A stretch of 64,000 bases of DNA, taken from positions 56,833-120,832 of the forward strand of contig CAVXRE010000014.1 of the NCBI GenBank assembly GCA_963764175.1, read 5' to 3'. Shown one piece after another: positions 11,937 to 64,000 of this stretch. The notes beneath the pieces are model-generated. The model worked only from the letters and a program-made list of their open reading frames with translations, made no database searches and was not told the DNA's origin. Numbering within the stretch: position 1 is the stretch's first letter; each line of letters begins with the position of its first letter. The stretch comes from an uncultured Verrucomicrobiae bacterium. Lineage in GTDB: Bacteria; Verrucomicrobiota; Verrucomicrobiia; Limisphaerales; UBA11358. The position numbers and the translations under genes were made by a program.

Positions 11937-12033
11937 TGCAGACAATTTAGGAAAAAACAGGCGATTGTCGAGGCGGGATGCGGGAGGGGATTGGACTATT
12001 TTTGTCGAATGACCGACGCGCGAATGAATCGGA

Positions 12034-12666
12034 TCATTTGAAGGTGAGGGTGCTAATTGAATCTTCGAATTCCTTGAGTTCTTTATCGTCTGAACTGCCA
12101 GTTTCATTCATTTCGCTAAAGGCTACGTTTATTCGCCAATCGGGGCGCGTTGGGTGAATGAAATCATAACCATGCGAAATAAAGATGTAATCACCTTCTT
12201 TACCAGCCAAAACGAGATGCACTTTTGCCTTCCATTCGTATTTAATACAGAACTTTCCGAATTGCTCGCAAGGAACAAAAGTGCTTTCTAATAATTCCTC
12301 GCCCGGCTTGAATTGTAATCTGTGAGGTTTGATAAAAGCCAAAAAGTCATCATGCGATTTGAATGTCGAGTCTGTTGGGAAAGCCAATGCATCCATTTCC
12401 CACCTTGGTATTGAAACGCTGGTTTGTAACATCACATTCGTTCCGTCTTTTTCATAAATGACCCAATCTCTTCCCTTCGGTGGCATAAATGAAAAAAGGG
12501 CCGTCTGCTGAAGCTGGTGCGCTTCGGTGTGCGCCATGTGCTCATCAATTTTTCGAGCGATGTAGAACCGTGGGTCGTATTGCGTTTCACAGCCGACAAG
12601 AAGCGCCAACAAAAATACAAGTGCCCAAATTCCAAGTTGCTGCTTGTTGGCCGGCTTCCAGTGCAT
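12034..12666 (-). CDS. hypothetical lipoprotein in AT-richer islet
   Basis: Signal peptide with lipobox (LLVGC) after the internal Met. No recognisable domain. Local GC is clearly below that of the flanks. Confidence 0.4.
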
Positions 12667-12774
12667 GGACGGGAATAGCCCGTTTGCGGGAAATTGGCAA
12701 GCGTGGTTTGGGCATAGATAAAACAAAGGATTGTTTGATTGCCGGATAATTGGATTGTTGGTGGACGCGGAATC

Positions 12775-12855
12775 ATCCATTTATCCATTTATCCAGCCAT
12801 CCAATTATCCAGTTCGGATTTTATCCGCGCCCATCCGCGTCATCCGCGGTCAAAA
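12775..12855. repeat. short intergenic direct repeats: TTATCCA x4 then ATCCGCG x3
   Basis: Read directly: catccatttatccatttatccagccatccaattatccag ... ttatccgcgcccatccgcgtcatccgcgg. Confidence 0.6.
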
Positions 12856-12859
12856 CAAT

Positions 12860-25545: not shown

Positions 25546-26162
25546 GGGTTTTCCCAAATCACCCTTCGTCCGGCCACTGAAACCTGCCCACGCGCAATCG
25601 CCTCCACACATTTCGGGTAAAGCTCGTGTTCCGCCGTGTGAATCCGCTGAATCAAAGTTTCCGGCGTGTCATTGTCGAGCACCGGCACGGTTTGCTGGCC
25701 AATGATGGCTCCGGAATCCACGCCCGCATCCACGAAATGCACCGTGCAACCCGTCAACTTTACTCCGTAATCCAGCGCCTGCTTCCACGCTTCGAGGCCG
25801 GGAAACGACGGCAGCAGCGACGGATGAATGTTCACGATGCGGCCTTCAAACGCACGAAGGAAATCGCCCTTCAGCACCCGCATGAAGCCCGCGAGCACAA
25901 TCAAATCCGCTTTTGCTTCCTGCAGCGCACCGACGAATGCCCGCTCCGCCTCTTCGTCCAGTTTGGTGCGGAATTTCCCCGGCGGAATGAACCTGGCTGG
26001 GATCCTCTGTTCGCGCGCGTGCGACAAAATCCCCGCGCTTTCGACATCACTCAAGACGAGTGCGACCTCCGCCGGAATTTTTCCTGACGCGCACGCCCCG
26101 GCAATTGCGGCAAAGTTGGTGCCTTTGCCGGAACCGAGGACGCCCAATCGGAATGAATTGCT
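25542..26162 (-). CDS. purN: phosphoribosylglycinamide formyltransferase
   Basis: LGVLGSGKGTNFAAI at the N-terminus, and SLLPSFPG downstream. The start is placed at the GTG (VSNSF); the ORF track extends it to 26225. Confidence 0.85.
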   Translation of the reverse strand, partial: SNSFRLGVLGSGKGTNFAAIAGACASGKIPAEVALVLSDVESAGILSHAREQRIPARFIPPGKFRTKLDEEAERAFVGALQEAKADLIVLAGFMRVLKGDFLRAFEGRIVNIHPSLLPSFPGLEAWKQALDYGVKLTGCTVHFVDAGVDSGAIIGQQTVPVLDNDTPETLIQRIHTAEHELYPKCVEAIARGQVSVAGRRVIWENP

Positions 26163-26223
26163 CACCGCGATTTGAATAACAGAACAACCGTCCGAAAGCA
26201 AATGCGTCTGGACAGCCAAAAAC

Positions 26224-26772
26224 ATGTCCTTATTTTTAAATCAGAGACCGATGGGCAATTTTTACACCAATTTCACAATTTTTGACGCGGACATTGAAGA
26301 GGTGACGGCCGCCGCCAAAGAATTGAAACGCGAGGCTTATATTCTGAAGTCCGGCAACGATGTCGTGGTTTTTGATCGCGATTGCGATGAGCAAGATGTC
26401 GAAGAAATCGAGATGCTCGGCACCGCCCTTTCGAAAAAATTGGGCGTCCGCATCCTGGCTTGCCTCAATCACGACGATGACCATCTTTTGCTTTGGATCT
26501 TTGAAGGCAAAAACAGGCGGGCGTCTTATCAATCAATCCTGGATGCGCCGCGATTTGCCTGGGCGCTTTCAAAATTCCGAGGCGGTTTTTTGACTTATCC
26601 GTTTGTTTTTGCCGTACTCGCCTGGCCGATCTTCATTTTCCAGGTGTTTAGACATCAGGCACTCAAGAAGCTGCTTTTATTGCCAAGTTCATCGGTGGGT
26701 CTGGGCTGTGCTTACCTTTCAAAGGGAGAAATTCCCCCGAATCTTCCGGCTGAAGATATCAGGCAAATATAG
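26224..26772 (+). CDS. hypothetical protein with C-terminal hydrophobic segment
   Basis: ORF only. It is divergent from purN. Confidence 0.3.
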   Translation: MSLFLNQRPMGNFYTNFTIFDADIEEVTAAAKELKREAYILKSGNDVVVFDRDCDEQDVEEIEMLGTALSKKLGVRILACLNHDDDHLLLWIFEGKNRRASYQSILDAPRFAWALSKFRGGFLTYPFVFAVLAWPIFIFQVFRHQALKKLLLLPSSSVGLGCAYLSKGEIPPNLPAEDIRQI

Positions 26773-26854
26773 CAAATCTGAAAGTTAAGCTCCGTCCATT
26801 AAATCGAATTTCAGGGATTTTTTAATATCACTGCGCGCGGCCTGAAAAATCATA

Positions 26855-28183
26855 TTGAATTTTCGACGTGCTTTTGTTCTTCAAATGGTTTTCATTGGTG
26901 GCGTGACAATCTGGATACTGGCTCTGGTATTGCTGGCGTCGTTGGCTGCGCTTGGTTATCGGCAGGGAGCGATCCGCGTGGTGTTTTCATTTGCCGGCAT
27001 CGTTTTTGCCGGTTTGCTCGCCGCACCGCTGGGAGAACATTTCAAGCCGCTGATGCCGCACGCGGGCATTCACAATCCGATGTTGATCTGGATTCTGGGA
27101 CCGCTGGAAGCATTCGTTCTGGTGCTGATTTTGTTCAAGATCGCCGGCTCCGTCGTGCATCGCCAGACGGAGCTGCATTACAAATACCAAGCCGATGATT
27201 TGAAGTTCGCGTTGTGGGAGCGGCTGAATCGCAGGCTTGGTCTCTGCCTCGGTGTGCTGAACGGCGCCGCTTATTTCGTGTTGATCTGCTTTGCTCTTTT
27301 CAACTTCAGTTATGGCACGGTGCAAATCGCCTCGTCCGACAGCCAGACATGGTCAACACGGCTGATCAACAAGTTCGGGCACGATTTGGAAAGCACCGGC
27401 ATGAACAAGGCCGCACGCGCCGTCGCCACGTTGCCGGAAAGTTATTACAAAACCGCGGACCTGGCGGGCTTGCTTTGCCAAAACCCGCAATTGGGCGACC
27501 GTTTCGTTCGTTACCCGGCGTTCCTCTCGTTGCTGGAACGCGACGACCTCAAACAACTCGCGCAGGACAGCACCTTCACCAGCGCCTTTCAAGGGGGCGC
27601 GCCGATGGGCCAATTGTTCGACGACCCACAAATCAAAGCCATTCTGCAAAACAATGATCTTATCCACACCGTCTGGGAAAACTTGCAGACCAACATGGAC
27701 GACTTGGTGGGCTACCTTAAAACCGGCCAGTCTTCCAAGTATGATTCCGAAAAAATGCTGGGCTTCTGGGATTTCAACCCAGTCACCACCGCCGCACTGC
27801 TGCCCATCGCGCAACCAAAGATTTCGCCCGCCCAAATGATGTTCGCGCGCCTTTGGATGACCAATTATTTACAAACCGTTCTTGTCGTCGTGCCGGACCA
27901 TCAAGTTTTCCTGCACAATCTGCCGCGCTTGAAATCATCGCCGGTGGGTGAAACAGCGACGCTGCACTTGTGGCCCATCATCATTTACGGGATTCGCAGC
28001 GGTTCGCTGCCGAACACGGAAGCCTCGACGCTGCCGGGCCAATGGGAAAGCGCTGATGGCGGTTACAAATTGTCCTTTACCAACAATGGCAAAACCGACT
28101 CTTTGGAGGTCCAAATCATAAACGACCGGCTGACAATGACGACCTCCGACGGGGATGCCATGGTCTTTGACCGGGAGCAGTAG
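26855..28183 (+). CDS. CvpA-family membrane protein with long C-terminal soluble extension
   Basis: The N-terminal 4-TM region (VTIWILALVLLASLAALGYRQG...FAGIVFAGLLAAPLG) resembles CvpA. Confidence 0.5.
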   Translation: MNFRRAFVLQMVFIGGVTIWILALVLLASLAALGYRQGAIRVVFSFAGIVFAGLLAAPLGEHFKPLMPHAGIHNPMLIWILGPLEAFVLVLILFKIAGSVVHRQTELHYKYQADDLKFALWERLNRRLGLCLGVLNGAAYFVLICFALFNFSYGTVQIASSDSQTWSTRLINKFGHDLESTGMNKAARAVATLPESYYKTADLAGLLCQNPQLGDRFVRYPAFLSLLERDDLKQLAQDSTFTSAFQGGAPMGQLFDDPQIKAILQNNDLIHTVWENLQTNMDDLVGYLKTGQSSKYDSEKMLGFWDFNPVTTAALLPIAQPKISPAQMMFARLWMTNYLQTVLVVVPDHQVFLHNLPRLKSSPVGETATLHLWPIIIYGIRSGSLPNTEASTLPGQWESADGGYKLSFTNNGKTDSLEVQIINDRLTMTTSDGDAMVFDREQ

Positions 28184-29033: not shown

Positions 29034-29111
<78 letters not shown>

Positions 29112-29274: not shown

Positions 29275-30189
29275 TTACCGCTTGTTTCGCGGTTGAATGA
29301 TTTTTGGACGGATTGGCGGAGGCATCGGAATCTTCGGCGGCATGGGCGGCGGTTCGGCCATTTCCGGCGGACGCGACCGTTCTTTCCCGGCGAATTCCAC
29401 AACCTGCCCTGCGATTTTCTGCACCGATTCAGCAACCGGCGCCGCCTTGCCGATTGTTTCAGCAGCCCCGGTTTCAATTTTCCCGGCCTGCTTCGACAGC
29501 CAGTCTTCGGCTTTTGTCGCATATTCGCCAATCTTTGTCTCGGGAAATTTCATCTCGCCGATGTTGAAATTGCCAAGCGCCTGCATCCCCTGACCGATGG
29601 GGCCAGCCACCGGTTCGCGCAACTGGCTGCCGGCCGTTTCCAAAGTCTGATAGCCGTTTACAATCCAGTCCAGTTTGCCGGTCTCAATATCAAGCAACAA
29701 CCCATGCACGGGAATTTTCGGACCGATGAGCGGGCTGTGCCGGACGATATCCACCGCCTTGATCACATTTTGCCGTTCGCTGCTGAACAAGCCGAAAAAT
29801 TCGTTGAGATTGTCCGGCAACGAATGCCGCTCGACGCCCAGCTCCTTGAATTTGTCCAGCAACTGCAAGGCGGTGGTTCTACAGACCAGGCAATCCGTGT
29901 GGCCGATGATGGCGATTTCGCGTCCGCCTTTGACCGCGCAGGCCAGGGCCAGCGTACGGGTCATCGAACTCATGGGATCAAAGATGATGTTGCCTGCGTT
30001 GCGCAGCCAGATGAATTGGTCAGCCGGCAGCGCAAGGGCATTTGGGAAAAATGCATTCAGCCGCGGGTCAATGCACGTCAATGCGATGACCGGCAATTCG
30101 TCTGCATAATCTGCCGGATGCAATCCAGCCGTCGTGTCACCGGCCACCGCCCGGTGGTTCGCGTCAATGATGGCTTCGAAGAGGCGCAT
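29275..30189 (-). CDS. beta-class carbonic anhydrase-like domain fused to C-terminal extension with Pro-rich tail
   Basis: CIDPR (CxDxR) and GHTDC (HxxC) zinc-ligand motifs at the appropriate spacing. The C-terminus contains PPPMPPKIPMPPPIRP. Confidence 0.5.
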   Translation of the reverse strand: MRLFEAIIDANHRAVAGDTTAGLHPADYADELPVIALTCIDPRLNAFFPNALALPADQFIWLRNAGNIIFDPMSSMTRTLALACAVKGGREIAIIGHTDCLVCRTTALQLLDKFKELGVERHSLPDNLNEFFGLFSSERQNVIKAVDIVRHSPLIGPKIPVHGLLLDIETGKLDWIVNGYQTLETAGSQLREPVAGPIGQGMQALGNFNIGEMKFPETKIGEYATKAEDWLSKQAGKIETGAAETIGKAAPVAESVQKIAGQVVEFAGKERSRPPEMAEPPPMPPKIPMPPPIRPKIIQPRNKR

Positions 30190-30393
30190 ATAAATTCACG
30201 GTTTAATACCTTTATTATTTTTCCCGCTTGCAGAAATTATAAATTAGGACCGCAATTAACGAGCCCGAAAAGAGTACAATTTTTGGCAATAGTGGCTGAT
30301 TTAAGTCTAACAAATACCTGAGTCCCTGCAAAGTCCCAAAAGCAAAAAACACAGAAAAGAGCATCACAAATTATTACTTCCTATTCACGTTAT

Positions 30394-30930
30394 TTATCTC
30401 CAATCAACAAATGGCAGCGGCACCTCTCTAAAAATGCTTAATTTACGTGGGCCCGCTGAAAGACATTTCCAAACTCCGTCCTCTTTATGCCACCAAACTG
30501 TAGAATATGACACTTCATAATCTGGAAGCTCGGTAAATTTACATATGAGAATCGCTTCGTCGACATTGGTTGAACCATAAGAACTTCGAAACCCAACAGA
30601 TAAAACATCATAGTTAACTAACCCCCAAAGTTTTTCAGCGTTTTTTGCCTCTGCAAGATAATCAGACTCCCGAACGTCTTCTCGGAAAGCTTTTGCGCGC
30701 AGTTCATAAGTATCGTGCCATTGTTTATCCCGCAACAATTGATAAAATCTTTTCAGGTCATGCGCTAATGTGCTCGCGGCATCCATCATAACTGGATCAG
30801 CATACTGAGCGGTTTCATCTAATATGCTAGTATTAGGATGCCAATCATTTGTGCTTGTTTCTTGGGAATGTGCTGCACATACGACTGACATCGCAATTAA
30901 ACAAATTTTTGGTAAATTGTAACGATTCAT
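30394..30930 (-). CDS. hypothetical secreted protein in AT-richer islet
   Basis: Signal peptide. Local GC is well below the flanks. Confidence 0.4.
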   Translation of the reverse strand: MNRYNLPKICLIAMSVVCAAHSQETSTNDWHPNTSILDETAQYADPVMMDAASTLAHDLKRFYQLLRDKQWHDTYELRAKAFREDVRESDYLAEAKNAEKLWGLVNYDVLSVGFRSSYGSTNVDEAILICKFTELPDYEVSYSTVWWHKEDGVWKCLSAGPRKLSIFREVPLPFVDWR

Positions 30931-30936
30931 AAATCT

Positions 30937-31170
30937 TCAAACTGATTTTTTCCACGGCTGCAACGGCGGCGGGTCGAAGGCGGGAGCCGGTGGCACCTTC
31001 GGCATCAGGAACCAGAGAACAAAATAAACTATCACTCCGGCAAACGCGGTAAAAATGGTTGCCAAGACCCAGACCACGCGCAAACGAGCCGGCGACCACC
31101 CGAGATGTTTCGCCAGCCCGCCGCAAACTCCGGCGATCACCCGATTATTTTGCGAACGGCAGATTTTCAT
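30937..31170 (-). CDS. PspC-domain membrane protein
   Basis: VIAGVCGGLAKHLGWSPARLRVVWVL is the PspC signature. Confidence 0.7.
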   Translation of the reverse strand: MKICRSQNNRVIAGVCGGLAKHLGWSPARLRVVWVLATIFTAFAGVIVYFVLWFLMPKVPPAPAFDPPPLQPWKKSV

Positions 31171-33557: not shown

Positions 33558-34142
33558 ATGATTAAGAAGAAGATTAAAATTACAGCGGAATACGGCCGCT
33601 TCCCGCTTGCCAATCGGCTGTGGCTTTTTCATTGTCTTGTCATGCAATCCTACGAACTCTTGCGCGAGGTATTTGAAAACAAGACGCCCAAACAGGTCGC
33701 CGCCGACCTCGGCCTGTCGCTTTCGATGGTTTATAAATGGGCCGAACCGCCGAACCACGCCTCAGGCAGCGGCACGGGCAATCCGCTGGACCGCATTGAA
33801 GCGCTGCTCACAAGCACCGGCGATCACCGGCTTGTTCAATGGATTTGCCAGCGCGCCGGGGGCTTTTTCATTCTGAATCCCAAAAACACGCCGCATCCGC
33901 ATTACCTGATTCCGGCCACGAACCAGATCGTCCAGGAATTTGCCGACCTGCTGCATGTCATTGCCGCCGCCACCGCCGATGACGCAATCACGCAGCCGGA
34001 ATCCAGGGAAATTCGCGCGCGATGGGAGGAATTGAAGACGGTGACGGAAGGTTTTGTGGCCTGCTGCGAAGAGGGAAATTTCAGTCACATTCGAAATCAC
34101 GCCTCAAAACACGCGGCGTCAAAAGCGAATGAGAAACATTGA
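33558..34142 (+). CDS. putative phage CII-like helix-turn-helix regulator
   Basis: KQVAADLGLSLSMVYKWAEP resembles the CII-family HTH. No other domain. Confidence 0.35.
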   Translation: MIKKKIKITAEYGRFPLANRLWLFHCLVMQSYELLREVFENKTPKQVAADLGLSLSMVYKWAEPPNHASGSGTGNPLDRIEALLTSTGDHRLVQWICQRAGGFFILNPKNTPHPHYLIPATNQIVQEFADLLHVIAAATADDAITQPESREIRARWEELKTVTEGFVACCEEGNFSHIRNHASKHAASKANEKH

Positions 34143-34889
34143 AGTCCTTATCGAAAAACTTTTCAGGCAGAGTCCTAATTTCACCGCAGACGATATTTTA
34201 ACCAGAACGATATGATAAGCCCCGCTAGAATGATGAACCACATGAACAGCACCCACCATATTTTCAGCTCTTGAACACTCATTTTAATACGCGCACAGGT
34301 TGCGGCAATTCATCGTTGTTTTGCGCGTTCCGCCATCTGCCGTTTTCATCCCGGTAAGCCATGCAAGTAAAGTTGACCCCTTGAACCATGACAAATCTAA
34401 TGATAAATGGCGATGGGCGTTTCTGGCCCGTCGCCGTGGTGCGGTACTTTGCGCATCTTTTGCGGAGTTTTAATGCCATGTTCTGATGATTTTTCTCGTT
34501 TACTTCACGAGACAAAGACTTCATTTCAATCAATCAACGGACCCGGCGTCCCAAACGACACCGGCAAACATTATGAGTCAGGCAATGGACAACCTCAGGC
34601 TATCGCGGAAGTGGTGAGAGCGACAACTGCCCTTTGGGGCAATGGCATAATGCGTTTCTGCAAAAGTTGTTTTTGGGCAAAAAAAGCGCAGCCCAAATAA
34701 CCAAGCTGCACCTCAAACATAAGTCATCCGGCAACATGAGATTGCCGGGCACAGAAACCAAAGCAACCAGAGCCACTCCAACAACTGCTCTTTGCGGCAG
34801 GTGTAGTAAGGTGTAGTAATAACCTGCTTCGGTGGAAAATATTCACCCGATCTGCGAGTGAAATCTGGCGATTCTCGAATGGCGCCGGC

Positions 34890-35543
34890 TCAGTTGGTGC
34901 GTCCGCTGTTCCGTGTCTTGAACAGACCCGCTTCATCCACAAGGCGCGTCAGTTCCGCCACTGATTGCACCTGCAATTTTCTCGTGATGTTTGTCCGGTG
35001 CAACTTCACGGTGCGTTCATTGATATCCAGTTCGGAGGCAATTTGCTTGTTCATCCGGCCCCGCACCACGTGCTCCAACACCTCCAGTTCGCGCTCGCTA
35101 AGCTCATTAAAACGACGGCGCAAATCCCGCAATTGTTCACGCTGACGCCGTTCCTGTGCGTCCCGTTCCATCGCCCGCTCAACCGCCGCCAGCAACTCCT
35201 CCTTCCGGGCACGCTTCGTCAAAAAATCCTCCGCTCCGCCCCGCATCGCGCTCACCGTTGTCGGAATGTCACCCTGGCCGGTCAAAAAAACTATGGGCAA
35301 TGGATTTGCAGAACACCTCAACGCCTCCTGCAATTCCAATCCGTCCATCCCAGGCATCTGCAGATCGGCCACGACGCAGCCGGGCATCTCCGGGGCCAGC
35401 CGGTCCAGAAATTCCTGCGCCGAGGCAAAAGCCTGCACGTGGTAACCGACCGCGCTCAGCAAACGGGACACCGACTTCAGGAAGGACGCGTCGTCATCCA
35501 CGATGAAAACGGTACCGGATCGGCGGTAAAGAGTGGCAGTCAT
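34890..35543 (-). CDS. response regulator, FixJ/NarL (LuxR-type HTH) family
   Basis: Receiver domain (VFIVDDD...) plus a C-terminal LuxR HTH (LSERELEVL...IASEL). Confidence 0.85.
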   Translation of the reverse strand: MTATLYRRSGTVFIVDDDASFLKSVSRLLSAVGYHVQAFASAQEFLDRLAPEMPGCVVADLQMPGMDGLELQEALRCSANPLPIVFLTGQGDIPTTVSAMRGGAEDFLTKRARKEELLAAVERAMERDAQERRQREQLRDLRRRFNELSERELEVLEHVVRGRMNKQIASELDINERTVKLHRTNITRKLQVQSVAELTRLVDEAGLFKTRNSGRTN

Positions 35544-55836: not shown

Positions 55837-55972
55837 TTAAATTCCCCCAAAATGCCGCCGTAAAAAAACATGTTGCGATTTGCGCAGTGAAGAAAATATT
55901 CGCCAGTGTTCGGGTGAAGAAAAAATGGGGGCAATCTGTGAATAAATCCGAGAAACGAGTTGCGAAAATAAA

Positions 55973-56062
55973 TGGTCGGAGCGACAGGATTTGAACCTGC
56001 CCCCTGCCATAGATTCACAAGCACTTACAAAGGCAGACGCACAAAGAGACTCACAAACTCCG
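55973..56062 (-). ncRNA. tRNA-like 3-prime element: acceptor stem, T-arm (TTCAAAT loop) and encoded CCA present, but no canonical D or anticodon arms
   Basis: Hand fold: 5-prime CGGAGTT pairs with 3-prime CGCTCCG. The T-stem is GCAGG/CCTGT, followed by ACCA. The internal 55 nt lack a GG D-loop or any anticodon hairpin. Confidence 0.4.
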
Positions 56063-56365: not shown

Positions 56366-56653
56366 ATGAACTTGAATCCCGCTGAATTGCTGAATCCCAT
56401 CTTCAACGCTCTGGACAGCTTGATTGAAAACTACGGCGTTTATCTCTACCTGGTGTTTGTCTGGCTGGCACTGCTGGCTATCGGTTGGATTTTAAGCGGC
56501 GGCTTGCGGAAACGGCTGAAAGGAAATTCAACCACGGTCATTCCCGGCATCATTTTCACGATGCACCCGCCGACGCAATCCCCGCCGCCAATCATCGGCA
56601 TCGAGGTCGAGCAGACATGGAAAGATGACAACGAAATGATGGACGAACCATGA
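56366..56653 (+). CDS. hypothetical small membrane protein
   Basis: A GGAGG sits 8 nt upstream of the ATG. There is one strong TM helix (LYLVFVWLALLAIGWIL). Confidence 0.35.
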   Translation: MNLNPAELLNPIFNALDSLIENYGVYLYLVFVWLALLAIGWILSGGLRKRLKGNSTTVIPGIIFTMHPPTQSPPPIIGIEVEQTWKDDNEMMDEP

Positions 56654-56945
56654 CAACTTTTCACTCACGACGATCAGACTGTGGCCGACGTGTTCAGAAA
56701 ATGGCAAACGCCGCCACGTTCAATTTCACACCACGGATTACACCACCGAATTTGCACGGTCATGTTCACGAAGCGCGAAAAATCCGGTGCAACAATGCTC
56801 CAAGCACGGTGCAAGCGCATATCACGAAATTGTCATTTTATACATCGCAAGCCTTACCCCTTGTCAAAACAAGGTTTTTACGGCTCGCCAATAGCTCGCC
56901 GAAAACTGCGCGGAGTCCCGCGAGACGGTCACGCGATGGGCGCGC

Positions 56946-56995
56946 AACATCCGGCAAGACATCCGGCGAAATATCCGCGCAACGTCCCGGCAATG
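56946..56995. repeat. degenerate 12-bp-periodic tandem repeat (ACATCCGGCRAR-like units x4)
   Basis: Read directly: acatccggcaag acatccggcgaa atatccgcgcaa cgtcccggcaat. Confidence 0.6.
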
Positions 56996-57144
56996 GCCGG
57001 ACAGTGGCAACGGCAATGCCGCCGAGCGTCCGTAAAGACGACTCGCAAGACAACTTGCCTTGCTCCCGACTTGGACGCGCCATGTCCGCGCCGGAAACTT
57101 GCGAGACGACTCGCCTCAAATCTCAACCATGACATCTAAAAATT

Positions 57145-57657
57145 ATGAATACACCAATCACACCACCATCAACGCCCGATCTCGAATCGCTGCACAAGGC
57201 GGTTCAGGAGTTCCGGCCTGTTCCGCATCGTGTCCCGTTCAACGGTTTGAAACCCGTCCATGATTCCATCGTGGAACTGCGTAAGCAAACTGTGTCTTAC
57301 GCCGCCATTGCCGATTTGCTGCAACAGCATGGGGTAAAAACCAGTCGGGCGCGTGTGGCCGAATACGGCCGCATCGTCCTGGAAGGCGGTAAAAAGCGCA
57401 AACGGCGGAAACGGACGAAAACCACGCCAGCCGCAAATATCCCGGCCACGTCTCAAAGTGCGTCAGCCGTGGCCGCACAACCCGCGCCGGCCACGCCGCC
57501 GGCAATGGCGATCACAAGCGAAGTTCCGCCGCCACCGAAAGAAAATTCTGCATACACATCGCGCGGACCGCGCATCGCCAACGTCCCGCAAATGAGTCCA
57601 GAAGAAGCCGCAGAATTCGACGCTTTCCTGAAATCAGAAAACGCCCCAAAGCCGTGA
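57145..57657 (+). CDS. hypothetical protein: N-terminal HTH-like domain, K/R-rich patch, Ala/Pro-rich low-complexity tail
   Basis: VSYAAIADLLQQHGVKTSRARVAEYGR is HTH-like. This is followed by KKRKRRKRTK and a PA-rich tail. Confidence 0.35.
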   Translation: MNTPITPPSTPDLESLHKAVQEFRPVPHRVPFNGLKPVHDSIVELRKQTVSYAAIADLLQQHGVKTSRARVAEYGRIVLEGGKKRKRRKRTKTTPAANIPATSQSASAVAAQPAPATPPAMAITSEVPPPPKENSAYTSRGPRIANVPQMSPEEAAEFDAFLKSENAPKP

Positions 57658-57839
57658 CCGGCATAACCGTGATTGTCTGGGGGTCGTAACGAGGGGCAGA
57701 CAATCACGATGCGCCGCGCGGCGCAAGAGCGCAGAGGCAAACAAACTTGGCCAGCGACGTTCGCCAGCCACACGCAGCCGCAAAGGTTCAGACGCCGCCC
57801 CGACAGGCCAATAACACCACGCTAGAAGCAAGTCTTTTC

Positions 57840-58100
57840 GGTTGGCAGCACGGTTAGCACCGGGTTAGCAACAGGGCGGTAATCATACGAGGCAGCATCC
57901 GAAGCAACATGGTTGTCACCATGCGAGGCAACGGCGAAGCAACACGGTTGGCAACAGAGTTGGCATTTCACGAAGCACGCTGGTTGGCATCGAGCGAAGC
58001 AGCCAACGCAACATGAAACGCAATGCTTGGCGCAACAGGCGAGGCAACATTTCACGCAGCACCAAGCGAAGCATTTCGCGCAACATTGGCGAAGCACAGA
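57840..58100. repeat. ~260 bp array of degenerate 12-bp-periodic repeats (GCAACAnnnnnG-like, ~20 units); frames give CCxx or LREMLP peptide repeats
   Basis: Units aligned by eye (gcaacggcgaa / gcaacacggttg / gcaacagagttg / gcatttcacgaa ...). The repetitive translations in all frames reflect the 12-nt period. Confidence 0.6.
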
Positions 58101-58480
58101 AACCTTGCCCCTTTAAGGGGTAGCGCGTGCCTTGACTAATTTCTACTTTTCGCCGCTTCCTTGCGATTGTCCTGGGTGTGACTTGGCCGGATGATTTCAG
58201 CGGCATGAACGGCTGACATTGAACCATGTTGAATGGCGTTTAGTTGCGTGAACCTTTCGCGCGATTTTTGCGCTAATTTTGCGCAACATTTGCGGCAGCG
58301 GTCGTGGCCTCAAGCTGTGCTAAGGGAAGATGTCTGACGGATTTTGAGCCGGTTCCTTCCGGCGCAACTGCTGTGTGCATCGCAGTCACCAGCTTGGCCG
58401 CTCCGCTGTTACGCCAACCGCGTTGCATGACAAGGAGAATAGCGTCCCGTCTAAAATCACCAAGTCACCGGAGCCAGGAT

Positions 58481-58548
58481 GTTGAAAAGCGTTGAATCAT
58501 CCTGTTGAATTTCGTTGAACGGCGTTGAAACCATCAACGCATTTCAAC
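58481..58548. repeat. array of five GTTGAA direct repeats at 10-13 bp spacing plus inverted TTCAAC copies
   Basis: GTTGAA occurs at 58481, 58491, 58504, 58514 and 58524. ATCAAC/TTCAAC occur at 58533 and 58543. Another GTTGAA lies at 58228. Confidence 0.6.
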
Positions 58549-58700
58549 ACAATTTTCCGTGCCATGCGGCGCATAGCTGAGAAACTACAATTTTCCGTAG
58601 GGGTGGGGCGTCCCGCTTTCGAGCATCCAATTAGGATGCCAACGGAATGATTTCAAATGGGGCTATTGGCTTAAAATCCGAATGTGGCAAATGGATTTAG

Positions 58701-58784
58701 AAGCGGCAAAAGGCGACAAAAGGCGGCAAGTTAAAGCGACAAATTGCGGCAAATTCGTTGCCGCCTTTTGTCGCTTTTTGCCGC
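58701..58784. repeat. 28-bp-arm inverted repeat (1 mismatch) with 28-nt spacer, built from six GCGRCAAA units
   Basis: The left arm AGCGGCAAAAGGCGACAAAAGGCGGCAA matches the reverse complement of the right arm TTGCCGCCTTTTGTCGCTTTTTGCCGCT. The spacer carries further GCGACAAA/GCGGCAAA units. Confidence 0.7.
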
Positions 58785-58978
58785 TCGGTTTCGAGCCGCG
58801 TTCTTTCCGAACGATTTCGTTGGGAGATGGTGTCTGTGTGCAAATGAAGTTTCCATCGGCCTCACTCCGATGCCATTTTCTGGCTGCGATGAATGTATGG
58901 CAACTGCCGTCGTGGGATTGGTGCGGTCGTAGCCTGTCCGTGACCGTGGACGGTTCTTGGCTTGTTCCGGGTAAAATT

Positions 58979-59503
58979 TCACTCAATGGGATTCTCACTC
59001 ATCTTTTTACCGATATAAATCTGCAATGGGAACGTGACGGCATCAACAACGAATGTAAATGGAAGCAATCCAACAGCCTTGCTAACAACCTTGATGTTCA
59101 CGGTTGTTCTTCGGTTCACGTCCACGCCTCCCTGACTTTGAACGCTGGCGATTTTTTTGTAATTCGAGTTTAGCTCCTTCCGTAAATATATTTTTTGCCG
59201 CACCTGCGGCGGCAAAGAGCTAATGTCCTTGAACGTGACATCGCCCTTCGTTTGAAGATGCGCCGCAACCAAAATATCCTGCGGAACAATCAAGTAAGCA
59301 GAAACACCATTTTGTTCTCCTGTTTTCGTCAGCGTGCCTTCGACCGCCAAACTGCCGTCGGACTTCGATTTGTAAATGGCCGTTGGCGAAAAATAATCTG
59401 ACTTACTGCCGACTGCATCATGCCACATGATACCAGTGACGCATCCCGACAGCAGTGGAAGCATAATTGCCACCACGAGAACTTGAAACGCTTTGCTTGG
59501 CAT
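58979..59503 (-). CDS. hypothetical lipoprotein (last gene of AT-richer operon)
   Basis: Signal peptide with lipobox (LLSGC). No known domain. Confidence 0.45.
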   Translation of the reverse strand: MPSKAFQVLVVAIMLPLLSGCVTGIMWHDAVGSKSDYFSPTAIYKSKSDGSLAVEGTLTKTGEQNGVSAYLIVPQDILVAAHLQTKGDVTFKDISSLPPQVRQKIYLRKELNSNYKKIASVQSQGGVDVNRRTTVNIKVVSKAVGLLPFTFVVDAVTFPLQIYIGKKMSENPIE

Positions 59504-59519
59504 CGGCAAGCACAATGTT

Positions 59520-59894
59520 TCAAGGCGTGTTCACGCCCTGAAAGGATTCCAACCCACCCAGTAAATTCTGCTTGGGGTCAAACTCCACGTTCCCGTCGTT
59601 TGGCGTCGGGTTCAGGTAAAAGCTAAACTCCATGAAGTCACCGTAAACTTTTCCGTAGAGCGCGCTTTTCACATTGCCGTTTGCGTTCAGCACTGCCCGC
59701 ACACGAAAGAAGTAATTCCGGTTTTCATCATAATCAGATATTCCCGGCTGCCCAGAATGGTGAGCATTTTCCCTGATCAACTGGGATTGATAACCGTTTG
59801 CCGGTGCTTCATGGGGTGAACGCAGACCCCTCCCTTTCTCCGCATCCGGCACGAGAAATTCATGACCAGAAACCCAGGTGTAGTGTGCGTTCAT
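59520..59894 (-). CDS. hypothetical protein consisting of an unrecognised ~110 aa domain shared with the C-terminus of the 60982..61971 product
   Basis: The stretch FFRVRAVLNANGNVKSALYGKVYG...YLNPTPNDGNVEFDPKQN aligns by eye with FFRVRTVLDSNGNVKSALYGKIQG...YLNPVPNSRNVEFDLKQN in the other protein. Confidence 0.5.
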   Translation of the reverse strand: MNAHYTWVSGHEFLVPDAEKGRGLRSPHEAPANGYQSQLIRENAHHSGQPGISDYDENRNYFFRVRAVLNANGNVKSALYGKVYGDFMEFSFYLNPTPNDGNVEFDPKQNLLGGLESFQGVNTP

Positions 59895-60970
59895 TTTACT
59901 TCACCATTCATTTTCTTGCGCAGTTCGTCCGTTGTCGGGGGAACTCCGGGCTGTTTCATCAAATACTTGTCAGATGATTTTCCGTTGTCGGCAAGGCGCA
60001 AGGCGTTTGAGGCGGAAATCCACTCAACACCTATTTCTTGAAGTTTGTTGTTATCAACATCGAAAAAGTCTATAGTCGCCCGATTAGTATCTACTGTCCG
60101 CCACGGAACCGGCCCCCCCACAAACATGGCCAACCCAATAAAAGCCATGCCGTCATTATTCAAAATTAGACTGAATGATTCTTCATTCGTCCAAACGCCA
60201 ACGAAAGGTGAATTCTTTGGCGTAACGTATTGCTCAATTAACGAACGATAGATGCCTTTTTTATCGAGTTGTCGAAGCAGAACTATGTCACGTCTTTCAG
60301 CCAGAATATCCACGGCGGACTTTTTACTGGCATTTTGAAGATAGGGATCAGCTCCGGCTTTTACCAACAGCGGCAACAAGCCCAAATCTTGATATTTCGG
60401 CGGTTGTCGCAAGACAGCATCAAGCAAAGATCGGCCTGTCTTTATCTCTTGAACACGCGCACCGTGTTCAAGAAGCCATTTAAGAGTATTTTCTCTTTCC
60501 TTCCCACACACTACAGCCATTTCCAAGGCCGTCATTTTCTCCCCAGTAGAAATCTGATTGATATCGGCCCCTTCCATGATAAGCTGTTTTATGAATTCCA
60601 AATTCCCTCGGATTACAGCCGCTTGAAGTGGTGTTTTATCACTCTCAAAGTTAGTGGGACACTCGTATCCGACATCTGCTCCCTGCTTGTGCAAGTATTC
60701 GAGCGCGTAAAATTGAGGACTGCGATAAGATAATCGGTCTGCGAGAAGATCGAACAACAGCCGAGAAGAAGTTGCTTTTCGGTCGGAGACACCGCGCGAG
60801 AAAATTTCAAACAAGTTTGTAAAAGTATTATAGCTGGCCGCGTTGCAAGCAGCCGCAAGCACATCACCTTCGGTTGGACTAGAAACATCTTTGCCAGCGG
60901 TTTGGCCAAACGAGTTGAAACAGCAACAAAGAAAAGGCACCGCAACTAGAGCTTTTAAGAATGCCTTCAT
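59891..60970 (-). CDS. periplasmic/secreted ankyrin-repeat protein
   Basis: Signal peptide. There are multiple ANK-like repeats (LLEHGARV, LVKAGADPYLQNASKKSAVDIL, etc.). GC is low. Confidence 0.75.
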   Translation of the reverse strand: MKAFLKALVAVPFLCCCFNSFGQTAGKDVSSPTEGDVLAAACNAASYNTFTNLFEIFSRGVSDRKATSSRLLFDLLADRLSYRSPQFYALEYLHKQGADVGYECPTNFESDKTPLQAAVIRGNLEFIKQLIMEGADINQISTGEKMTALEMAVVCGKERENTLKWLLEHGARVQEIKTGRSLLDAVLRQPPKYQDLGLLPLLVKAGADPYLQNASKKSAVDILAERRDIVLLRQLDKKGIYRSLIEQYVTPKNSPFVGVWTNEESFSLILNNDGMAFIGLAMFVGGPVPWRTVDTNRATIDFFDVDNNKLQEIGVEWISASNALRLADNGKSSDKYLMKQPGVPPTTDELRKKMNGEVK

Positions 60971-60981
60971 ATAATTTAACT

Positions 60982-61971
60982 TTATGGGGCTTTGACCTGC
61001 TCGGTAAATGGCAGTCCTTGAAATATATTTTGCTTCAGATCAAATTCCACGTTCCGCGAGTTTGGCACTGGGTTGAGATAGTAATCGAAAGCTATTCCAG
61101 AACGCGGTGCTTCACTGCCGACATAAAATCTCACCTCGCCCTGTATCTTGCCATAGAGCGCGCTTTTCACGTTGCCGTTTGAGTCCAATACTGTGCGCAC
61201 ACGGAAAAAATATCCAGAAGCCGGTTCTGAAGTTTCAGTAAAGTTATGATAGCTCCATGCCAGTGCTGGCTGATAACCTTCTTCCGCAGCGGAATGCGGC
61301 ATCACCAGTGGACTGAGGCCGGTATCGGCGGGAGAGGGCGGCACAACGACAACGCCGTCACCCGCATTGGGGAACGTCAGTTTCAAGTTCGCATCAAATT
61401 CCTGCGGGCTGGTGATTTTACGATGAACGGTGAAAAGCATGTCGGCGGTCTTGCCAGCACCATACGGTGCAACCCAGTCCCCAACTGTCAAATCGAAGCC
61501 CACTGGTTCATTCTCCTTGGGCATTTTTATTTCCTCCTTTTTCGCATACATCGCAATCGGTTTGCCGATTTTTTTGAGCACCAATGTAAAGGTTGGATTC
61601 CGGCTCGCGGCCACAGTCTTGTCGTCAAACTGTCCCGGCTGATAAAGTTCATGGCCAATGTGAGTAGTGTAATAGCCGGCCTTTCCAACGTTGACTCCAA
61701 ATGTCCATGAACTGTCCGTGTGGGATGCGCTAAACATCCCGTTGTCGTCGGTGAGACCTTTGATTTCCCCATACGCTTGCTGGTCTGGTGCCGACGGCGG
61801 CAGAATGGTGTATTGAACGGACACGTCCGCCCCTGGCACTGGATTGCCGTCCTCACCGACGACTTTGATGGTCGCAGTCCACGGATACTTTGTCAGTTGT
61901 CCGAAGGCACAACCGTTGGTGAACATGATGAGCGTTAGACAGAGAAAGGTGAGCGTGTTTTTCATAATCAT
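60982..61971 (-). CDS. secreted protein with carboxypeptidase-regulatory-like/Ig-like N-domain and C-terminal copy of the shared ~110 aa domain
   Basis: Signal peptide. ATIKVVGEDGNPVPGADVSV is a CarbD-reg-like strand. The C-terminus is paralogous to the 59520..59894 product. Its ATG overlaps the upstream stop (ATGA). Confidence 0.55.
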   Translation of the reverse strand: MIMKNTLTFLCLTLIMFTNGCAFGQLTKYPWTATIKVVGEDGNPVPGADVSVQYTILPPSAPDQQAYGEIKGLTDDNGMFSASHTDSSWTFGVNVGKAGYYTTHIGHELYQPGQFDDKTVAASRNPTFTLVLKKIGKPIAMYAKKEEIKMPKENEPVGFDLTVGDWVAPYGAGKTADMLFTVHRKITSPQEFDANLKLTFPNAGDGVVVVPPSPADTGLSPLVMPHSAAEEGYQPALAWSYHNFTETSEPASGYFFRVRTVLDSNGNVKSALYGKIQGEVRFYVGSEAPRSGIAFDYYLNPVPNSRNVEFDLKQNIFQGLPFTEQVKAP

Positions 61972-64000
61972 TTGAGATTTCCCGTAGTTACCATTTGTTT
62001 GAACAACTGATAGGTGAAGGTGTAAGCAACGATGCGAGCGTCCGAGTGATGCCATTCACCGAACGCGGTAGTGCCTATTGGCCATTGCGGCGCACCGCGA
62101 CCAGTCGGCCAACCATTTTCATACGAAGACTGCATATCAAAATTTCTCGTGCCGCCAAATCTGATGTCAAGATTCGTGTCCGCATTCGCTCCGAGAGGCA
62201 ACGTCAGTGCCGGAATCGCGTCCGACAAGATGCGGTTGCGGTTGGTCTGCACATAGGCGCTGCCGCTCGAACTGGCGGTGAACATCGCCGTGTCAACGCT
62301 CATGTCGAAAAAGGCGTTGGTCTGCAACACCGAGTTGGTAATCACCGCCGGCGGGATGTTCGTCCGCAACCCGTTCACGAAAAACACGTAGCCGGAATTA
62401 AGATTTTCATTGAGTCCCCAGCCGCCGTGGTCGCTGCTCAAAATCGTGTTGCCCAACATCTGGCCTTTATCTTTTTCCTGCCACGCCCAAACGTATGTTC
62501 CCGATTGCCCCTCTATCCATTGCACTAGCTGGGCACCAAAAAGTAAAATAAGGTTCGAGGGTGGCGCGCCGCTGTAGGTTCGCAGCACTTCCTCACCGCT
62601 GGAATAAAAGTTATAGACTGCGGTGCTGCCAAAATTACCAAACCGATTGTTCCACGTCAAAGTGCTGCGGGCGTCGTTGGTCGGCCATACATTGAACCAT
62701 TCGCTCGCCCAAAGCGCAGTGGCGTAATTCAGCCAAGGAGCGGACGATGTGGAATAAACCATGTTGGTGTTTATCGGCGTGCTGCCGTCAATCGCCTCCA
62801 TCGGCACGGCGGCGTCCACCATGAAGTATTGGCTGATGGGTGCATTCCAATCGCTCATGGCGCTCAACGCCACCATGTTGCCCAAACTATGTGCCATTAC
62901 CGTTGTCGGCCCGTTGGTCAGCGTGGCAATGAAGTTTGCCAGCAACGGTGCAGTCTGAAAAGCGTGAACCACGTTCGTCTGATAGTTGGCCGTCACGCCC
63001 GAAATCCAATTCCCCTGCGAGTCATTGCCATACCAGTTCACGCCGTAAAACCTGGCGTGCGAGCCAGACCAGTAAAGCCGCTTGTAGATGTCGGCAAACC
63101 AGCCGCGTGCCTGATACGGACTGACATTATAGCCATGCACGAACACGACATTTTTATCAATCGTGTCCGGCTCATTGGGCACGCTGGCATCCGTCAGTCG
63201 GTCGGGCAATAAATTTGCTTGATTGGTTGCCGCTCCAATCAGCAGGTTTTTGTAACGGAACATCTGTTCTACACCGCTGATGCTCAAATAAAGTGAAGTC
63301 TGCGCAATCTGGTTCGTGCCGTGGTAAATCGTCAGCACCAATGGCTGCGTTGTGGATGCTGCTGCTTCCACCAGAATGATGCCCTGATTGTTTGTGGCAA
63401 TGCCACCAACAAACGACTGCAACAGCGTCACGCCGCCATTAGCTGCATTGGTGATGGTGGTCAGCGACGCATTGGCCAAATTGCCCGACTCATTCGTGTC
63501 GTGCAAAAAATTCATGTAATTGGTTGGCGTCAAGTCCGTGTAGGCGAACCGCAACACGCCGTCGGCTTGGCTCAAAACAAATGACCAGTTGGTATCCGTG
63601 AAGCTGATTCCGGCACTTAAAGCATTGCTCTGGAACAAACTGCTGATGTTGATATACAGAGGGAAGTAGTTCACGAGGTCTCGCCGTCCGTGGATTTTCC
63701 ACTGGCGCTGAATTTGCAACACGCCATTGCCTTGTGCCCCCTGTCCCGGAATGCCTGTGCCGCCGAAATCGCCAGCGTCGGAAGTATCGTCAACCCAAAA
63801 ACGAAACGGTTTGCTTGCCGATACGAAATCCGGGCCTTGGTAAGTGAAATCCATCGTGCCATCATGATTGGCGTCCGCCGAGAGTGCAACCACACGAACC
63901 ACGCCCGTGCCTTGCTGCCCGGTGTTAATGTCAGGCATTGTCACCAGTGCAACCATGCCCGGCTGCGTCGGGAAGAAGTCGCCATACGGCGAAACCACGC
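61968..64000 (-). CDS. large secreted alpha/beta-hydrolase (lipase/esterase-like, GxSxG = AHSLG) domain protein, 5-prime partial (continues beyond window end)
   Basis: FVHGYN...MAHSLGNMVA is a serine-hydrolase nucleophile elbow. The ORF has no start before the window end. N/T/S-rich beta regions flank the domain. Confidence 0.6.
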   Translation of the reverse strand, partial: VVSPYGDFFPTQPGMVALVTMPDINTGQQGTGVVRVVALSADANHDGTMDFTYQGPDFVSASKPFRFWVDDTSDAGDFGGTGIPGQGAQGNGVLQIQRQWKIHGRRDLVNYFPLYINISSLFQSNALSAGISFTDTNWSFVLSQADGVLRFAYTDLTPTNYMNFLHDTNESGNLANASLTTITNAANGGVTLLQSFVGGIATNNQGIILVEAAASTTQPLVLTIYHGTNQIAQTSLYLSISGVEQMFRYKNLLIGAATNQANLLPDRLTDASVPNEPDTIDKNVVFVHGYNVSPYQARGWFADIYKRLYWSGSHARFYGVNWYGNDSQGNWISGVTANYQTNVVHAFQTAPLLANFIATLTNGPTTVMAHSLGNMVALSAMSDWNAPISQYFMVDAAVPMEAIDGSTPINTNMVYSTSSAPWLNYATALWASEWFNVWPTNDARSTLTWNNRFGNFGSTAVYNFYSSGEEVLRTYSGAPPSNLILLFGAQLVQWIEGQSGTYVWAWQEKDKGQMLGNTILSSDHGGWGLNENLNSGYVFFVNGLRTNIPPAVITNSVLQTNAFFDMSVDTAMFTASSSGSAYVQTNRNRILSDAIPALTLPLGANADTNLDIRFGGTRNFDMQSSYENGWPTGRGAPQWPIGTTAFGEWHHSDARIVAYTFTYQLFKQMVTTGNLK

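Follow-up and report, generated by a model that had tools for sequence, protein, structure and literature searches.

We analysed a 64,000-nt stretch of DNA from an uncultured Verrucomicrobiia bacterium (contig CAVXRE010000014.1, positions 56,833 to 120,832; hereafter the window), whose end, positions 58979-64000 in window numbering, holds a block of five minus-strand open reading frames (ORFs). The conserved unit of this block consists of gene 1, which encodes a giant secreted protein with a C-terminal lipase-like module, and gene 2, which encodes its exported partner; downstream of these two lie genes for an ankyrin-repeat protein, a shorter relative of gene 2 (gene 4) and a predicted lipoprotein. 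All five ORFs are present at the positions given in an initial annotation of this DNA. Gene 1 is cut by the window end, and to see beyond it we used L004, a contig of 193 kb on which the block occurs in a near-identical copy. The closest related loci are labelled Limisphaerales or subdivision 3. The block comprises the following features:

61968-64000, minus strand: gene 1 (hydrolase), 3' part, 676-aa C-terminal part plus stop codon, cut by the window end (from the ORF list and the L004 copy)
63189-63890, minus strand: N-terminal beta-rich subdomain of the module, residues ~37-270 (from cross-phylum conservation and strands in an AlphaFold2, AF2, model)
61971-63176, minus strand: alpha/beta-hydrolase domain, residues 275-676, with large insertions and an HG oxyanion motif at 63132-63137
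62880-62894, minus strand: nucleophile elbow A-H-S-L-G, residues 369-373 of the window fragment, with the Ser371 codon at 62886-62888 (translation checked)
62046-62048, minus strand: codon of His651, candidate catalytic histidine in a W-H-H-S-D motif (from conservation and its place before the last helix)
60982-61971, minus strand: gene 2, 329 aa, exported all-beta partner and predicted immunity protein (from linkage and signal peptide)
59891-60970, minus strand: ankyrin-repeat protein, 359 aa, exported, lineage-specific accessory (Ank_2, E=1.9e-11)
59520-59894, minus strand: gene 4, 124 aa, no signal peptide, paralogue holding only the C-terminal domain of gene 2 (from BLASTP)
58979-59503, minus strand: predicted lipoprotein, 174 aa, MPSKAF…LLSG-C lipobox, lineage-specific (from sequence)

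The genes are tightly packed. Read from the sequence, the hydrolase stop codon overlaps the gene-2 start in an ATGA at 61968-61971, and the ankyrin stop overlaps the gene-4 start in an ATGA at 59891-59894, both as initially described. Gene 2 and the ankyrin gene are 11 nt apart, and the spacing between gene 4 and the lipoprotein gene is 4 to 16 nt by the start codon chosen, so that the gaps can reach 16 nt, where a limit of 12 was first given. For gene 2 we also considered a 357-aa ORF from an upstream ATG, for which an exact look-up gave no match; since the 329-aa form is on record in public assemblies, the start of gene 2 is 61971, giving 329 aa.

The L004 copy of gene 1 is 98.8% identical and full length, encoding 2057 aa. 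The initial annotation had predicted a secreted lipase of more than 676 aa; the length bears this out, but the hydrolase is no stand-alone lipase and instead forms the C-terminal module of a Sec-exported protein, in which a Sec signal peptide is followed by a Laminin_G_3 domain (assigned by Pfam), about five FN3-like repeats (counted by eye), a region without matches and the ~640-aa C-terminal module. The N-terminal subdomain of the module, which had no Pfam match, is conserved across phyla from residue ~37, contains beta strands in the AF2 model and carries the Asp-rich motifs DANHDG, FWVDDxxDxGD and RDLVNYFP. At window positions 63850-63890 (module residues ~37-50) it shows a weak, non-significant likeness to dockerin-type Ca-binding loops (DANxDGxxD; E=0.36), and at 62870-62900 the hydrolase shows a similarly non-significant, weak likeness to the AHSxGNM elbow of lysosomal phospholipase A2 and LCAT-type enzymes (LPLA2-like; E=1.6). 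We treat these two resemblances as leads only, on the function of the N-terminal subdomain and on the class of the hydrolase.

The hydrolase domain matched Abhydrolase_6 in Pfam (E=2.4e-6) and, marginally, DUF900 (PF05990), with 22.7 bits against a cut-off of 20.5 and over profile positions 20-114 only. In the AF2 model Ser371 lies between a strand (365-370) and a helix (373-384), and His651 lies just before the last helix (659-672), which puts both residues in canonical topological positions. On the strength of this model we are confident that the C-terminal domain of gene 1 has an alpha/beta-hydrolase fold with a nucleophile elbow between strand and helix, and the AHSLG serine-hydrolase elbow recognized at the outset sits within that fold. 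Gly289, Ser371, Glu508, His651 and Asp653 are invariant in all 81 relatives compared (identity down to about 31%), and positions 469 and 470, Glu here, hold an acidic residue (E or D) in about 95% of them. The candidate catalytic triad would be formed by Ser371 as nucleophile, His651 as base and Glu469/470, Glu508 or Asp653 as acid. The families proposed beforehand for this protein, DUF2235, lipase_3, DUF3274 and PGAP1, were not borne out by Pfam. Among the Pfam models for Tle1-4, the lipase effectors of type VI secretion systems (T6SS), only Tle3 gave a match, which stayed below the cut-off (12 bits where 27 are required; E=0.15) and spanned 32 residues at the elbow, and DUF2235, Lipase_3 and PGAP1 were absent at E≤1; the hydrolase therefore falls outside the Tle1-4 families. 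A sequence search of the PDB with the hydrolase, both as single sequence and as profile, gave no significant match, and NCBIfam, PADLOC and PHROGs returned nothing for the block except generic ankyrin matches. Its structural neighbours include feruloyl and acetyl-xylan esterases and polyhydroxybutyrate (PHB) depolymerases.

A scan of 185,579 species representatives (one genome per species) yielded 147 relatives of the module, from which 80 loci were kept, all in metagenome-assembled genomes. The 84 loci that we compared are mostly from Verrucomicrobiota (Limisphaerales, Chthoniobacterales and Opitutae), and the module is also found in Geobacteraceae/Desulfuromonadales, Nitrospirota, Lentisphaerota and Chryseolinea. 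It forms the extreme C-terminus in every locus with a complete 3' end, in proteins of about 600-3850 aa whose N-terminal parts are mutually unrelated: LamG plus FN3, a transglutaminase core plus Big_1, TSP3 repeats plus beta-helix, and long immunoglobulin-like (Ig) arrays. The protein of one locus, L063, consists of a signal peptide and the module alone. Sec signal peptides were present in about 40 of 66 complete hydrolase proteins.

All ORFs of the 84 loci, up to 10 kb on each side, were clustered, and only two recurrent families emerged: the hydrolase protein itself (84/84 loci) and homologs of gene 2 (78/84). The gene-2 homolog lies directly 3' of the hydrolase gene in these 78 loci, in several phyla, the median offset being 6 nt and ATGA overlaps frequent; in most of the loci without it the contig stops no more than a few hundred bases past the hydrolase gene. 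The initial annotation had cast the ankyrin protein and the lipoprotein as the likely partners of the hydrolase and had looked to co-localization in other genomes as a check. Such co-localization holds for the hydrolase and gene 2 and not for the ankyrin and lipoprotein genes, which among the 84 loci are confined to L001-L005 and are near-identical there to those of the window, so that the obligate partner of the hydrolase is gene 2. The absence of linked secretion-system genes, already noted for the window, extends to this wider sample: VgrG, PAAR and other T6SS genes are not recurrent in the surveyed neighbourhoods, and upstream of the giant gene L004 carries an integrase gene, a 238-aa ORF and a receiver-domain gene. 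In five loci an ORF of 100-146 aa directly follows gene 2 (L008:11086-11454, L010:12992-13432, L019:4419-4721, L034:3037-3399 and L050:2952-3347). These ORFs are, by eye, rich in hydrophobic stretches, did not cluster by BLAST and could represent a further membrane component or be spurious.

The gene-2 product starts with a cleavable signal peptide (cleaved between …AFG and Q), followed by a transthyretin-like beta-sandwich and a second all-beta region. It matched nothing in Pfam or NCBIfam, and a profile search of the PDB gave no significant match; its 1243 homologs, about 310-335 aa long, are all unannotated and devoid of Pfam domains. Every aligned homolog carries a signal peptide, and in 45 homologs the residue that follows the cleavage site is always Gln. 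We considered whether gene 2 might encode a lipoprotein and rejected this: the signal-peptide Cys is not conserved, and the Gln after the A/G cleavage site is invariant, which makes the gene-2 homologs signal-peptidase-I substrates. The signal peptides of the giant protein (L004:3831-3920), gene 2 (61890-61971) and the ankyrin protein (60900-60970) all end in A/G followed by Gln, and …AQ stands at the signal-peptide end of many other hydrolase proteins. Such ends recall the pyroglutamate 'Q-rule' of Bacteroidetes signal-peptidase-I substrates.

Gene 2 and gene 4 had been said to share a novel domain, and this domain proved to be both real and unannotated, with 41% identity over about 120 aa (BLASTP, E=7e-24). 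Gene 4 lacks the signal peptide and the N-terminal domains of gene 2, and its identity to gene-2 homologs of other loci (56-65%) exceeds its 41% identity to gene 2 of the window. Judged by these comparisons, gene 4 looks like what is left of the 3' end of another gene-2 type. Similar gene-2 fragments occur in L057 and L059, and a search with gene 4 returned 1140 clusters at 50% identity, nearly all of ~300-340 aa with the domain at the C-terminus and a minority of short forms.

Several loci carry further pieces of the two-gene unit. Hydrolase fragments that are truncated at the 5' end and lack a signal peptide are found in L037, L091, L070, L039 and L006, beginning at module residues of about 133, 149, 386, 398 and 518; a gene-2 copy follows the fragment in all of these except L039, where none was detected. 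In L091 the order is main gene, gene 2, fragment of the hydrolase C-terminal half, gene 2' and gene 2'', with the three partners 44-56% identical to each other. Extra gene-2 copies are present in L012, L044, L051, L053 and L091, and L087 carries whole modules in tandem. The orphan fragment of L037 is 78.5% identical to its main gene at the nucleotide level over the first 317 nt and divergent after that, and this shared 5' block suggests, from the sequence, a recombination substrate.

The pairwise identities of the loci point in the same direction. Gene 2 is more divergent across loci than the hydrolase core, and over 2556 locus pairs its identity follows that of hydrolase residues 398-676 (partial r 0.54) and not that of residues 40-270 (partial r 0.17) or 275-397 (0.12). 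The window protein is itself a mosaic: its N-terminal part is closest to L092 (0.75), and L021 is the nearest locus for its C-terminal half (0.60) and for gene 2 (0.55).

The ankyrin and lipoprotein genes present a different picture. A metagenome scan detected no relatives of the ankyrin protein, whose cluster at 90% identity has 4 members, and we found no recurrent ankyrin gene beside the hydrolase gene in different genomes, only near-identical island copies; the lipoprotein had no match in Pfam, NCBIfam or the PDB. In L004 an IS21-family element (rve plus IstB) breaks the lipoprotein gene, and hydrolase and gene 2 are intact. The lower GC content of the block relative to its flanks, first noted by eye, was confirmed by computation: 58979-64000 has a GC of 0.504, and no 5-kb window of 1-55900 is that low (mean 0.566, sd 0.017, minimum 0.512). 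The dip is deepest in the ankyrin gene (0.456, with a GC at third codon positions, GC3, of 0.44), the lipoprotein gene has 0.469, and the hydrolase part is closer to the genome at 0.536 with a GC3 of 0.66. The difference in GC3 suggests separate origins for the ankyrin gene and the hydrolase part. The ankyrin protein and the lipoprotein are local, later, lineage-specific additions; they may be further orphan immunity genes in a mixed downstream array.

The block forms the 3' end of a genomic island integrated into this Verrucomicrobiia genome, and the horizontal acquisition that had been surmised from base composition finds support at both island ends, in a tRNA fragment at one and a tyrosine integrase at the other. 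Two further features lie in the window part of the island:

55972-56010, minus strand: tRNA gene 3' fragment (T-arm, acceptor, CCA), presumed att repeat, adjoining glnB/amtB
56366-57657, plus strand: three small island ORFs (95, 160 and 170 aa) without a family match, kept in L001 and L004

The tRNA fragment comprises 37 nt, adjoins the P-II and Amt genes, and is found again at the corresponding element end in both L001 and L004; tRNA and Rfam scans detected no full tRNA at 55972-56010. We presume that it marks the island boundary. The tyrosine integrase gene lies upstream of the giant gene in L004, and an integrase also adjoins L006.

The otherwise near-identical island copy in L004 carries two insertions, an IS21-family element and a group II intron (L004:12510-15138 and L004:16578-18104), the reverse transcriptase of the latter lying in the spacer that matches window ~57700-58900. 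Just upstream of the giant gene, L004:2727-3224 encodes a stand-alone response-regulator receiver inside the island (Response_reg E=2.9e-26), and this gene overlaps another ORF picked by the public gene call. In the window, the spacer that separates the small island ORFs from the block is poor in ORFs and contains short tandem repeats with periods of 36 and 12 (57867-57965), and a Cys-rich 91-aa minus-strand ORF over them is probably a repeat artefact. A near-perfect hairpin of the minus-strand transcript (58702-58787, folded as 58690-58800) lies ~190-280 nt 3' of the lipoprotein stop codon; its stem of ~27 bp (-53.5 kcal/mol, z=-6.7 against shuffles) is built from the inverted 10-nt repeat arrays GCGGCAAAAG and TTGCCGCTTT. 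It was rejected as a classical intrinsic terminator, there being no U-run after the stem, and it explains the only Rfam match of the scan, to mir-43_2, which we regard as due to chance. Other 1-kb patches of low GC (0.44-0.49; window average 0.56) at 12001-13000, 26001-27000, 30001-31000 and 34001-35000, one of them close to a tRNA-Pro gene (29034-29111), may be further foreign insertions.

What might a giant exported hydrolase and its coupled partner do? On balance, and with a confidence only a little above even, we favour a toxin/immunity pair, in which a Sec-exported lipase-like toxin and a periplasmic immunity protein encoded by gene 2 would be diversified by cassette exchange. We lean towards this reading, drawn from sequence comparison, because a C-terminal catalytic module is carried on varied exported scaffolds together with a coupled, faster-evolving exported partner, and because orphan cassettes, spare partners, carriage on integrase islands and a patchy cross-phylum distribution accompany the pair. 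The two genes would form an antagonism module travelling as island cargo. A lectin and FN3-like N-terminal scaffold would carry the Asp-rich beta subdomain and the lipase-like serine hydrolase, and the hydrolase would attack competing cells at their membranes or at other ester-linked parts of the envelope. Gene 2, presumably translationally coupled to gene 1, would bind and neutralize the hydrolase in the producer's own periplasm. The exchanged cassette would consist of the hydrolase C-terminal half and its cognate gene 2, with displaced fragments and spare partners left downstream; gene 4 would be one leftover of such an exchange, and the ankyrin and lipoprotein genes would have been added later. 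We infer the toxicity, the substrate, the interaction between the gene-2 product and the hydrolase, and the passage through the outer membrane. A lipid target is plausible by analogy, since a secreted DUF900-type xHSxG hydrolase is known to be a bactericidal phospholipase A1 (see below).

A number of observations weigh against a toxin/immunity pair. L080, with 10 kb of downstream sequence and no gene 2, is one clear exception to the linkage. Gene 2 resembles no known immunity family, and its predicted folds (transthyretin-like, HmuY/BfrB-like) are generic. Asp395, placed at what we take to be the pancreatic-lipase spacing of the acid residue, is Asn in 14 of 81 sequences, and the triad acid has several candidates. 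Sec is the sole export route identified for the giant protein. The tracking of gene 2 with the hydrolase C-terminal half could reflect mere physical adjacency on the DNA, because the C-terminal half adjoins gene 2 and linkage alone could explain such a correlation. Finally, other toxin domains were not seen on the scaffold made up of LamG, FN3 and the pre-module region: all five metagenomic relatives of this scaffold keep the module and gene 2, and the variety of toxin domains on a shared scaffold that classically marks polymorphic toxins was not seen, in a weak test that comprised 13 short fragments from a protein search of the pre-module region and 5 loci from the metagenome scan.

That all related scaffolds keep the same module is also what would be expected if the giant protein served nutrient acquisition as an esterase or lipase, secreted or at the cell surface, and acted on polymers or lipids bound by its lectin-like N-terminal domains, with gene 2 as a periplasmic helper (chaperone, transient inhibitor or anchor). 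This is the main rival, and we rate it as possible but rather doubtful. Surface proteins that bind carbohydrates typically have LamG, Ig-like, beta-helix and TSP3 domains, the feruloyl and acetyl-xylan esterases and PHB depolymerases among the structural neighbours of the hydrolase fit such a role, and operons of a lipase and its foldase are an established precedent. However, orphan fragments with a partner, spare partners, mosaicism and integrase islands are unexpected for a metabolic enzyme; gene 2, all-beta and with a cleavable signal peptide, is unlike the lipase-specific foldases, and it diverges faster than the hydrolase core. The silent 5'-truncated cassettes with their 5' homology block, and a mosaicism that falls mostly in the C-terminal half, could alternatively mean that an exposed C-terminal half and its co-varying partner are swapped from silent cassettes so as to escape phage or predators, with no toxin role. 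We think this highly improbable: the strict conservation of Ser and His in 81 of 81 sequences points to selection for catalysis, and the partner is a separate exported protein outside the surface protein.

It also seems quite unlikely that the ankyrin protein and the lipoprotein are themselves the periplasmic immunity proteins of the hydrolase. Both have export signals and lie in the same packed block, and ankyrin-repeat immunity proteins have been described for polymorphic toxins (PMC3482391); yet neither gene is present in any of the ~80 other hydrolase loci, the ankyrin protein has a cluster of 4 members and no relative in the metagenome scan, its gene differs in GC3 from the hydrolase part (0.44 vs 0.66), and the lipoprotein gene of L004 has been disrupted by the IS21-family element next to an intact hydrolase and gene 2.

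A toxin/immunity pair of this kind would resemble several described systems in part. Polymorphic toxins with Sec-dependent export include ones with alpha/beta-hydrolase toxin domains (WapA-type, Tox-ABhydrolase), and SUKH, Imm66 and Imm69 are the immunity families reported for Tox-ABhydrolase-2/3 (PMC3482391, Zhang et al. 2012). Like these, the locus encodes a large multidomain secreted protein with an enzymatic C-terminus followed by a small downstream gene, is associated with 5'-truncated orphan cassettes that have their own downstream gene, and lies on mobile DNA; hydrolase toxin domains are known there too. In contrast to them, the locus keeps the same catalytic family on every related scaffold examined, the exchanged unit appears to be the C-terminal half of one catalytic domain plus the partner, the exported all-beta gene-2 product, having no Pfam match, is unrelated to SUKH, Imm66 and Imm69, and RHS, filamentous haemagglutinin and LXG parts are absent here. 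The Tle1-4/Tli pairs of T6SS (Tle3/Tli3 structure 8boz) likewise combine a GxSxG serine alpha/beta hydrolase with an adjacent exported partner, but the giant protein brings its own Sec signal peptide, and T6SS genes are not linked to it.

The locus can also be set beside two kinds of secreted lipase. In the LipA-Lif operons of Pseudomonas and Burkholderia, the gene for a secreted lipase precedes that for a periplasmic partner of ~330 aa, which is transcribed together with the lipase and co-evolves with it. Lif proteins are helical and membrane-anchored, whereas gene 2 is all-beta, and hence not Lif-like, with a cleavable signal peptide; nor are orphan arrays known as a feature of Lif operons. 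Cinquedea of Haloferax is a secreted DUF900-type bactericidal phospholipase A1 with an SHSLG motif (bioRxiv 10.64898/2026.06.10.730825). It shares with the module, on the basis of its description and motif and not of a direct sequence alignment, the nature of a secreted alpha/beta hydrolase and the xHSxG nucleophile motif (SHSLG in Cinquedea, AHSLG in the module). Homologs of Cinquedea mostly match Pfam DUF900, and an antibacterial role has been shown for Cinquedea itself. Unlike the locus described here, Cinquedea is encoded by one gene alone and lacks both a partner and a giant scaffold, and the DUF900 match of the module covers only 95 of 232 profile positions.

The locus is not categorically new and is unproven; it combines two families not described before, arranged in a layout familiar from toxin/immunity systems, and its unit of exchange is unusual. 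A broader and, in our view, unlikely generalization is that it belongs to a hitherto unrecognized pathway of antagonism, in Verrucomicrobiota and some other diderm phyla, that would employ giant Sec-exported surface proteins without type V, VI or VII secretion systems, and whose specificity would be switched by swapping half a catalytic domain (acid, His and lid) together with a cognate all-beta immunity protein from a new family of >1000 clusters. Verrucomicrobiota are abundant in soil, peat and freshwater, and their means of interbacterial competition are poorly known. The locus points to a widespread, wholly unannotated two-gene module, and if this is a toxin/immunity pair, it would represent a new lipase-like toxin family and a new exported immunity fold, and would illustrate how specificity can be switched when half a catalytic domain is exchanged.

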